Positions 3,769-4,730 of a stretch of 30,935 bases of DNA are shown here, piece after piece. Within the stretch, counting starts at the first letter, position 1. Each line of letters begins with the position of its first letter. Both the position numbers and the translations under genes were made by a program. The notes beneath the pieces are model-generated. The model was not told the origin of the DNA. It saw nothing but the letters and a program-made list of their open reading frames with translations, and searched no databases. This DNA is from a virus (Duplodnaviria; Heunggongvirae; Uroviricota; Caudoviricetes), in IMG/VR virus record IMGVR_UViG_2690316316_000011, positions 1 to 30,935 of that record. The stretch is one strand, 5' to 3'.

Positions 3769-4416
3769 TCAATAGCCAGTGAAACTTGCTAAAGCAATTT
3801 GAAATCCGCTGTTCCCCATTGCCTGGCGATATGTCTTCTGGTTTTTATTCACATACTGTAAAGAGAATGAAGTACTGCTATTCCTTTTAATCAAAATGCC
3901 AGAATAACCAACTGTACCGCCATCATCGGATATGTTGCCCGGACACTGACTAATGCATATCCACGGATCGGCAAAACTCGTTGTAAGCGTCAAGGCAGTA
4001 CCGAGATCATGAGAGGATGGCACGGTAAGAAAACCCTGAATACGTGGCATTGTACCCGCACTGGCAGCAGACCAGATCAATGTTCCAGCACTGTTATACA
4101 CATCAAGGTAGCCTGATGTAAGAGCCGTAGTATTACTGGAGAGCATGAACCGCCCTGAACCTGCCTCGAACATTGCCGAGCCGGGAAAGCAGTACTTTCC
4201 ATTCGTCTGTAGCTGAAACCAGCGTAGCCCCGTATTCGGGAAGAAATTTAGGGGCAAATACCCCAGCGTACTCCCGTTACCAAAGGCACTGTTAATGAGA
4301 TAGTAACCTGTGTCTGAGAGTGTACCCATTGCTTTAACGGAACTCATTACGACCGATTTATTATCGGAATCAATCGTAAGAGCACCTGCTGAATTGTAAA
4401 CCTGAAAACCTGACAT
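3769..4416 (-). CDS. tail-tip associated protein, unknown function
   Basis: 215-aa ORF directly downstream of the J-like gene; Gly/Ser/Thr-rich; N-terminal motif GFQVYNSAGALTIDSD resembles the N-terminus of the neighbouring 101-aa ORF. Confidence 0.35.
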   Translation of the reverse strand: MSGFQVYNSAGALTIDSDNKSVVMSSVKAMGTLSDTGYYLINSAFGNGSTLGYLPLNFFPNTGLRWFQLQTNGKYCFPGSAMFEAGSGRFMLSSNTTALTSGYLDVYNSAGTLIWSAASAGTMPRIQGFLTVPSSHDLGTALTLTTSFADPWICISQCPGNISDDGGTVGYSGILIKRNSSTSFSLQYVNKNQKTYRQAMGNSGFQIALASFTGY

Positions 4417-4424
4417 AGTTATCC

Positions 4425-4730
4425 TTACACGTCATATTTGTATATATCGAATGTTAATGTTTGGGCATAAACTCCACTCACTGGAAGATATTGAACGGTA
4501 AAAGCGTTAGTACCCGGAATACAGTAAAACTCATTCCAGTACTGACTCACTCGCATTACTGCTAACCAACCCGTAGGACGCATACCCGACCAGGCTACGC
4601 TCCATGATGTAGTGCTACCAGCCGAAACATTAAGATTAACTGCTCCCATATACCGCATGTTGTAATCACCAATATCGACAATTAATCGTCCAGATGCATC
4701 CCAGCATTGTAAACCCTGTGCCATTACCAC
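4425..4730 (-). CDS. tail-tip associated protein, unknown function
   Basis: 101-aa ORF overlapping the J-like gene end by 7 nt; N-terminal [17 protein letters not shown] motif shared with the 215-aa ORF. Confidence 0.35.

Follow-up and report, generated by a model that had tools for sequence, protein, structure and literature searches.

What do the two small genes that follow the tail-tip gene of a tailed-virus genome encode? The genes in question lie in the 30,935-nucleotide (nt) IMG/VR virus record IMGVR_UViG_2690316316_000011 (Caudoviricetes), which was analysed over its whole length and is referred to below as the window. They are two open reading frames (ORFs), A (99 amino acids, aa) and B (215 aa), both real and both encoded on the minus strand immediately downstream of a gene for a 1067-aa J-like central tail fibre or tail-tip protein (4724..7927; here J). 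J is identified by matches to the Pfam families Phage_Tail_Tip (5e-21), fn3, and Phage-tail_3 and to phrog_31, "central tail fiber J" (2e-61). The initial annotation of this region, made from the sequence alone, placed the pair where receptor-binding accessory proteins usually sit and suggested that A and B are alternative or cooperating receptor-recognition modules. We argue that A and B are probably virion proteins and that the two chains jointly make up a receptor-binding head, which would be attached by three hairpins to the distal end of the J-like fibre.

The mechanical ORF call gives A a length of 101 aa (4425..4730), with a GTG start at 4730. The start codon is most likely the ATG at 4724, because most homologues begin there ("MAQGLQCWD") and because this ATG overlaps the stop codon of J as TAATG; the resulting 99-aa protein (4425..4724) is predicted to form a single β-sandwich module. 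B (3769..4416) starts 8 nt past the stop codon of A and is preceded by TAAGGA. It is predicted to comprise two β-rich modules of ~100 aa each and is probably the main receptor-contacting chain. Neither Pfam (E ≤ 1; in a release that lacks PF28254, to which the B family has a precomputed assignment) nor NCBIfam assigned a family to A or B, and the PHROG matches of the pair are phrog_4524 (6e-63) and phrog_7961 (9e-27). A nucleotide search of 50,697 phage records yielded no near match for the region, and its relatives were found at the protein level only.

The suggestion of a common origin rested on an N-terminal motif, which is present in A and B as originally quoted and which is marginal for single sequences and clear between family profiles. 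BLASTP of A against B does not report this motif; its best segment is another pair (B side NGKYCFPGSAMF, E=0.044). The ungapped 14-mer (B side GFQVYNSAGALTID) scores 32, a value reached somewhere in the pair by 4.4% of 1000 shuffles. For the profiles, built from 27 A-type and 62 B-type sequences, hhalign gives P=6.3e-5 across 20 N-terminal columns; when A is compared with the N-terminal half of B, 79 columns align, the FYCIPG/YCFPG segment among them, at P=3.4e-5 and a probability of 72%. When the columns of the A alignment were shuffled, none of 300 replicates reached the observed score of 30.3 (null mean 13.7, sd 2.6, maximum 22.9). The alignment statistics proposed as a check are thus well beyond chance at the family level, and they support the conclusion that A and B share homologous modules, not merely a chance motif.

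A third copy of the motif, missed by the initial annotation, lies inside B at residues 101–116 (SGYLDVYNSAGTLIWS). The first hairpin occupies A residues 3–19 (4668..4718), with predicted strands at residues 5–8 and 14–18. The second, B residues 2–17 (SGFQVYNSAGALTIDS; 4366..4413), is the one aligned with the N-terminus of A in the 20-column comparison, and the third, B residues 101–117 (SGYLDVYNSAGTLIWSA; 4066..4116), stands at the start of the second B module. The consensus of the module hairpin is G-h-x-h-[WYF]-[DN]-x-x-G-x-L, where h is hydrophobic. Residues G4, W8, D9, and G12 of A are invariant, as are G3, N8, G11, G102, D105, and G111 of B.

These three segments are at once the best conserved and the least confidently modelled parts of A and B. 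The frequency of the major residue, averaged over 10-residue blocks, is 0.85 and 0.72 in residues 1–10 and 11–20 of A, as compared with 0.46–0.54 in residues 31–70; in B it is 0.87 and 0.74 over residues 1–20 and 0.81 and 0.88 over residues 101–120, the latter being the highest value in B. Outside the motif segments of both proteins it is ~0.45–0.8. The model of A is an eight-stranded β domain with a predicted local distance difference test score (pLDDT) of 83, and that of B is all-β (pLDDT 91, predicted template modelling score 0.84). Within the motif segments, pLDDT falls to 61–65 at the N-terminus of A, 69–70 at the N-terminus of B, and 82–83 at B residues 101–120 (the lowest internal values), as against 82–96 in other blocks of A and 89–98 in other blocks of B. 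High conservation combined with low confidence in the monomer models would fit segments that become ordered on a partner. Tailspike and fibre proteins have distal domains that the predicted fold of A appears to resemble, and so does a domain of 9rpt_C. A Foldseek search of the PDB with the B model retrieved nothing at E ≤ 0.001, and a profile search of PDB sequences yielded no match.

The two genes travel together. In 81 of the 82 loci with a B homologue, A is immediately upstream of B, and in nearly every locus the gene before the pair is J-like. B occurs without A at a single locus, L011, from which J is also absent. Of the 81 pairs, 72 have A and B spaced by −4 to +9 nt, and the other nine overlap by 13 to 143 nt, probably due to the ORF caller taking the earliest in-frame start. 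The identities of A and B homologues to the window proteins co-vary (r=0.90). The closest relatives (up to 97–100%) come from metagenomic viral contigs and from prophage-like regions or contigs that bear the labels Buttiauxella, Enterobacter, E. coli, Salmonella, and others, and they point to Buttiauxella or Enterobacter as the host. Among 1.8 billion representative proteins, a profile search identified 113 clusters of A-type proteins, nearly all of them single-module proteins of 90–108 aa. Four matches to the A profile were set aside. In three long proteins (P0184, P0227, and P0257), the A core is resembled by many stretches; two of these proteins on reading proved to consist of tandem repeats, and all three seem to be matched through repeats or composition. 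In P0194, the J C-terminus is read through into A, probably in a frameshifted contig. As a separate observation, at loci L005, L006, L012, L013, L017, and others the J-like ORF stops ~50–250 nt before A without overlap; the gap could hold a small ORF, or it could stem from a frameshift or from an artefact of ORF calling.

A candidate partner for the hairpins is encoded next door. At its C-terminus, J has a hairpin, encoded by the last 20 codons (4727..4786), whose pattern matches that of the module hairpins and which we propose as their docking site. On reading, the same C-terminal pattern was seen in the J-like proteins of HK639, Bas10, LMessi, T1, and Rtp, and in the fibre protein encoded upstream of P0236, a single-chain relative described below.

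The position of the pair after J had been taken as that of receptor-binding genes, and this is supported: in small siphoviruses, the locus adjacent to gpJ has been linked to terminal-receptor specificity (PMC8594841; 10.64898/2026.04.02.716166), and the pair has homologues in a cassette for which the receptor is known. Maffei et al. matched allelic variants of the gpJ-adjacent locus to each receptor (PMC8594841). For phages Bas10 and IME347, this terminal receptor is the TonB-dependent transporter YncD (PMC8594841), and the YncD dependence of Bas10 and Bas11 has been confirmed by transposon sequencing (RB-TnSeq; 10.64898/2026.04.02.716166). The latter preprint names a YncD-specific receptor-binding family at this locus, with one receptor-binding protein and "one or two accessory proteins" per locus, and predicts YncD as the receptor of LMessi from the locus alone. 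The AlphaFold3 interface score (interface predicted template modelling, ipTM) reported for the YncD-type protein is 0.78–0.83 with YncD and 0.16–0.23 with non-cognate receptors (10.64898/2026.04.02.716166). In the YncD-cassette literature examined, no function is given for the small, A-type protein.

A tblastn search located adjacent homologues of A and B, in the same order, in HK639, LMessi, and the Drexlerviridae phages Bas10 IsaakIselin, IME347, NBD2, and Henu7. B is 38–47% identical over 100% of its length to the proteins of Bas10, IME347, HK639, and LMessi, and A is 34–41% identical over 94–99% (HK639_24/25: 41% for A and 47% for B; bas10_0026/0025: 36% and 38%, respectively); the LMessi pair is CDS0036/0035. 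B is thus above the threshold used in the preprint to recognize a receptor-binding protein (>30% identity, >99% coverage; 10.64898/2026.04.02.716166). The sizes (~100 and ~215 aa), the gene order, and the three hairpin motifs are those of the window pair. In HK639 and LMessi, the pair is directly downstream of J as in the window, unlike in Bas10, where the cassette is on the strand opposite to J. From these homologies, the window pair reads as a diverged member of a known receptor-specificity cassette, 34–47% identical to the YncD-type members.

The YncD cassettes of coliphages differ from the window in having a companion gene for a lipoprotein or a protein with a signal peptide (Bas10_0024, LMessi CDS0034). 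By eye, bas10_0024, a small exported protein (L001:6729-7061), and LMessi CDS0034, a lipoprotein with the lipobox LVAGC (L104:16607-16969), resemble each other, and both are candidate YncD-directed exclusion proteins. No ORF with a lipobox was seen near the window cassette. Such a gene is probably not obligatory for the cassette, because HK639 also has no annotated homologue of the exclusion candidates.

Single-chain proteins of the same overall size suggest how A and B may fit together. Rtp44 of phage Rtp (311 aa; L083:6753-7688) matches the Pfam family DUF6453 (PF20051) at 1e-113. This family (phrog_1265; PDB 9RPT chain C) comprises the LptD-binding protein of Rtp-like and Dhillonvirus phages, and the homologue from phage Oekolampad binds the extracellular face of LptD (10.1101/2025.07.07.663478). 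The locus adjoins a J-like gene as in the window, and the length of the protein (311–321 aa) is close to the 314 aa of A and B combined; the differences are that it is one polypeptide instead of two, that its receptor is LptD while the candidate for the window pair is YncD-like, and that it is accompanied by the exclusion lipoprotein Rtp45. As in A+B, there are three motif copies ~100 aa apart, which in Rtp44 are QGIYIDLNDGR at residue 3, GQGIYVADSTDF at ~113, and GPGINIFNSNNQCTF at ~208. Residues 1–25, 113–142, and 206–234 of the Oekolampad protein, its disordered segments on the tail-proximal side, were not modelled in the cryo-electron microscopy map and were taken from AlphaFold (10.1101/2025.07.07.663478). 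After alignment of Rtp44 to the deposited sequence, these segments were found to hold GAGILIDYNDGRP, AGLLVANSTDFTAIS, and GTGITMTNNQNQVTFST, i.e., the three motif positions, with the motif matched by eye. The Rtp44/Oekolampad literature examined makes no mention of repeats or pseudo-symmetry.

The second single-chain relative, P0236, is a 313-aa metagenomic protein (L105:5120-6061) with the motif at residues ~3, 107, and 200. Over the first ~97 residues, hhalign aligns it with the A family at a probability of 96% (E=1.8e-9), and its third module matches A at P=1.4e-4; for the second module, neither A nor B gave a significant match. P0236 belongs to no Pfam family, and a word-indexed homologue search returned P0236 only. 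Its gene is located 3 nt downstream of a 307-aa fibre gene (L105:4194-5117) whose product ends in IKVYDSGGTLRVKIGDLSA / NNVIKVYDSGGTLRVKIGDLSA, the same ending as that of the window J. The total sizes of A+B, Rtp44, and P0236 agree to within 3 aa.

Phage T1 has the two-chain layout. Its genes ST32 (101 aa) and ST31 (229 aa) directly follow J (L107:10608-11602) with the same one-plus-two arrangement of modules as A and B. The hairpins are YGISTWDANG in ST32, and YGAFIDVNGN and, at residue ~110, WGMAIWDASGKLVL in ST31. A matches the ST32 family with a probability of 85% (P=6e-6) and the second module of ST31 at P=4e-5, and ST32 itself matches that module at P=1.4e-4; the match between B and the ST31 family is weak (probability 14%, P=0.002). 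The T1 proteins are the equivalents of N15 gp22/gp23, which are encoded upstream of cor in FhuA-dependent phages, whereas the window has no cor homologue, and their PHROG families differ from those of A and B.

The role of the T1 pair is disputed, being given as a receptor-binding protein with an accessory protein (10.64898/2026.04.02.716166) or as exclusion-related (PMC13164509). The latter study, published in 2026, found no structural matches for the pair and guessed a role in superinfection exclusion from the association with cor. In databases, ST32 is annotated as "outer membrane protein", ST31 as "membrane associated protein", and Rtp44 as "membrane protein", and two of them are assigned by PHROGs to the category "moron, auxiliary metabolic gene and host takeover". 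None of the three proteins has a signal peptide in its sequence. The membrane labels are probably wrong, and judging from their sequences these proteins look like tail-tip receptor-binding chains.

Taken together, the data are most simply explained by a head built of three β-rich modules of ~100 aa, one contributed by A and two by B, which would associate as a heterodimer in the virion. Each module would open with a conserved β-hairpin, and the three hairpins would make up the tail-proximal face and dock on J. Like other fibres of its kind, J is presumed to be trimeric and would offer them three identical C-terminal hairpins, so that a single asymmetric head would cap a three-fold fibre. The variable distal loops, mainly those of B, would bind an outer-membrane β-barrel receptor, for which a YncD-like TonB-dependent transporter of an enterobacterial host is the likeliest candidate. 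The TAATG overlap and the tight spacing would couple the synthesis of J, A, and B. Such a head would explain why A and B share the N-terminal motif, why their genes are inseparable from each other and coupled to J, and why the motif is their most conserved part. It would also mean that "accessory" is probably not the right word for the pair, which is more likely to be the receptor-binding head itself.

Precedents exist for parts of this arrangement. In T5, the monomeric receptor-binding protein pb5 sits on the trimeric pb4 fibre, similarly to the single asymmetric head on a three-fold fibre proposed here. The tail-proximal part of pb5 is poorly ordered when the protein is isolated, a comparison drawn in 10.1101/2025.07.07.663478. 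The J protein of lambda contains its own binding domain (PMC8594841), whereas the window J ends in a short hairpin and binding would be supplied by separate genes; the C-terminal domain of lambda J and the proposed head would share the task of terminal-receptor recognition at the end of the central fibre.

Several observations weigh against the proposed head or against the receptor suggested for it. Internal duplication of B is weak by sequence (N-terminal half against C-terminal half, P=0.007). The matches of the J C-terminus to the N-terminus of A (P=0.0026 over 20 columns) and to B residues 53–116 (P=3.7e-4 over 52 columns) are individually weak as well. Low pLDDT is common at the N-termini of any model. 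A comparison of A and B with a 15-sequence Rtp44 family gave hhalign P values of only 0.002–0.26 (0.08 for A), neither protein matched DUF6453 at a Pfam E ≤ 1, and a 16-column hidden Markov model of the motif, made from all three hairpins, gave no significant hit to the motifs of Rtp44. Because these sequence statistics are weak, the link to the LptD-type protein rests on the apparent likeness in fold, the architecture, the locus, and the bridge provided by P0236. As for the receptor, LMessi CDS_0021, the protein named in the preprint, is the B homologue on the supposition that numbering starts at the large terminase gene. A tblastn search of the window with Bas10_0024, LMessi CDS0034, T1 Cor, and Rtp45 retrieved nothing below E=0.7, i.e., no homologue of an exclusion protein. 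Finally, the YncD assignment is not transferable to the window phage, because the identity of B to the YncD-linked proteins is 38–47%, under 50% for all characterized members.

Among other explanations, the one that survives best assigns receptor binding in the virion to B alone and makes A a non-structural helper, either an assembly chaperone or a transient adaptor loading B onto J. A is small, and tail-fibre assembly factors (Tfa, gp38) commonly adjoin their fibre genes; furthermore, the preprint models a single protein against YncD with high ipTM and treats the remaining proteins of the locus as accessory (10.64898/2026.04.02.716166). We nevertheless consider this division of labour unlikely, given that A is homologous to a module that in P0236 is covalently part of the single chain. 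A, B, and the C-terminus of J all have the docking-type hairpin, and the hairpins of A and B total exactly three. The predicted fold of A, as noted above, appears similar to distal tailspike and fibre domains and to one domain of 9rpt_C, and neither A nor B matches a chaperone family of the Tfa or gp38 type in Pfam, PHROGs, or NCBIfam.

A quite improbable alternative is that A and B are independent receptor-binding proteins, each able to occupy the tip of J and each specific for a different receptor. The same N-terminal hairpin on both proteins could indeed allow either of them to dock on J, and dual-receptor phenotypes are known in related phages, e.g., Bas01 with NupG and LptD; however, these cases were ascribed to a J domain and not to two proteins of the locus (10.64898/2026.04.02.716166). 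The fixed order and adjacency of the genes in all but one of the loci, their correlated divergence, and the absence of J from the only locus with B and without A are not what would be expected of interchangeable proteins, and the single-chain relatives hold all three modules in one polypeptide, with as many motif copies as A and B have together. Of the two roles offered by the initial annotation, "cooperating" therefore fits the proposed head, in which the cooperation would be structural, and "alternative" is disfavoured.

An action in the envelope of the infected cell, be it superinfection exclusion or another membrane function, is less probable still. It has in its favour the labels that PHROGs gives to phrog_557 and phrog_425, the way in which T1 ST32/ST31 and Rtp44 are annotated in GenBank, and the exclusion link that PMC13164509 assumes from the association with cor. 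Read from their sequences, A and B have no signal peptide, lipobox, or transmembrane segment; A has no hydrophobic leader, nor has B, which starts with MSGFQVYNSAG, and both models are soluble all-β proteins. The proven exclusion proteins Cor, Llp, and Rtp45 are small lipoproteins of ~60–80 aa, and A and B are unlike Cor and Rtp45. In cassettes of the YncD type, the exclusion role would be filled by Bas10_0024 and LMessi CDS0034, which are unrelated to A and B. We argue against exclusion because A and B have no export signals and because the exclusion candidates of these cassettes are unrelated lipoproteins; in addition, the Oekolampad homologue of Rtp44 binds LptD at its extracellular face.

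That the shared motif is a chance or compositional resemblance between unrelated proteins is barely credible: pairwise BLASTP without the motif, a single-sequence score matched by shuffled sequences, and hhalign probabilities of just 44–72% speak for it, and they are outweighed by the column shuffles (z ~6), by the position of the motif at the conservation maximum of both families and its recurrence at module starts of B, T1 ST31, Rtp44, and P0236, and by the second collinear segment (FYCIPG/YCFPG) that aligns as well.

The three-module head may extend beyond the window. The receptor-binding families for FhuA, YncD, and LptD, which are encoded beside gpJ in T1-like, Dhillonvirus, HK639-like, and related siphoviruses and have been described as unrelated, might share one pseudo-three-fold head plan with hairpins homologous to the ends of J and stacked on them; we put this forward tentatively, as slightly less likely than its negation, and leave the BtuB family out of it. 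Under this plan, the head would be encoded either as one chain (Rtp44/DUF6453, P0236) or split one-plus-two (A and B of the window; T1 gp32/gp31). The first third of the head would then correspond to the small protein now called "accessory" or "outer membrane", and the hairpin would act as a universal plug that allows exchange of whole heads between phages. The reading in terms of three hairpins, split in some phages and fused in others, appears not to have been described previously, and we regard the chances of its being correct as roughly balanced.

The gpJ-adjacent locus is currently the best genomic predictor of the outer-membrane receptor of small siphoviruses and an obvious handle for phage re-targeting, yet its products still carry annotations such as "hypothetical" or "membrane protein", and as recently as 2026 the T1 pair was assigned to superinfection exclusion. 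If the head consists of two chains, host-range swaps must move both genes together, and the compatibility of head and fibre would be defined by the conserved J end together with the hairpins. There would also be a concrete structural answer to the question of how a fibre with three-fold symmetry is matched to a single receptor. For the window alone, A and B are the genes most likely to set the receptor specificity of an uncharacterized enterobacterial siphovirus or prophage.

The locus belongs to a structural module of siphovirus type, which encodes a terminase, portal, protease-capsid fusion, and tail tube as well as tape measure and distal tail proteins, in DNA of ~40% G+C; the genes for the tape measure, distal tail, and tail proteins are upstream of J. 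Downstream of B there is a gene for a 90-aa protein (3459..3731, minus strand) with an N-terminal transmembrane segment and a coiled coil, preceded by a promoter-like site (3772-3744). It is the last gene before a bidirectional terminator-like hairpin (3450..3470; a stem of nine pairs, of which five are G-C, and a T-run on each strand), which separates it from a convergent phage lysozyme gene (3005..3448, plus strand). The 90-aa gene is kept after B in 44 related loci and is followed there by a lysozyme gene. Its product has weak XhlA, holin, and spanin-like matches and no similarity to the exclusion-protein candidates of the coliphage cassettes; it is probably lysis-related and would lie outside the binding head. 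Further left, a 98-aa ORF (1337..1633, minus strand) has a weak match to GTA_holin_3TM. Lysis genes thus appear to flank the tail-tip cassette.

Four other ORFs, all on the minus strand, deserve mention. The 264-aa ORF at 482..1276 matches phrog_37652 (unknown function) and no Pfam family at E ≤ 0.001; its N-terminus reads like an HNH-type nuclease motif (CNIC...HVIAKS...NLILLCANDH). In the 911-aa ORF at 13551..16286, the first ~150 residues match the major tail (tube) protein family phrog_158 and the remainder matches tail-fibre families, with a Peptidase_S74 intramolecular chaperone domain at residues 806–862; it looks like a tube protein with a fibre-like, possibly self-cleaving extension. 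A 598-aa fusion (17030..18826) joins a prohead serine protease (Peptidase_S78, residues 61–154) to an HK97-type major capsid protein (Phage_capsid, residues 336–595). Finally, a SegE-like GIY-YIG endonuclease (2515..2967; Pfam, 3e-15), a probable homing endonuclease, is encoded between the lysis genes and other genes of the left end.

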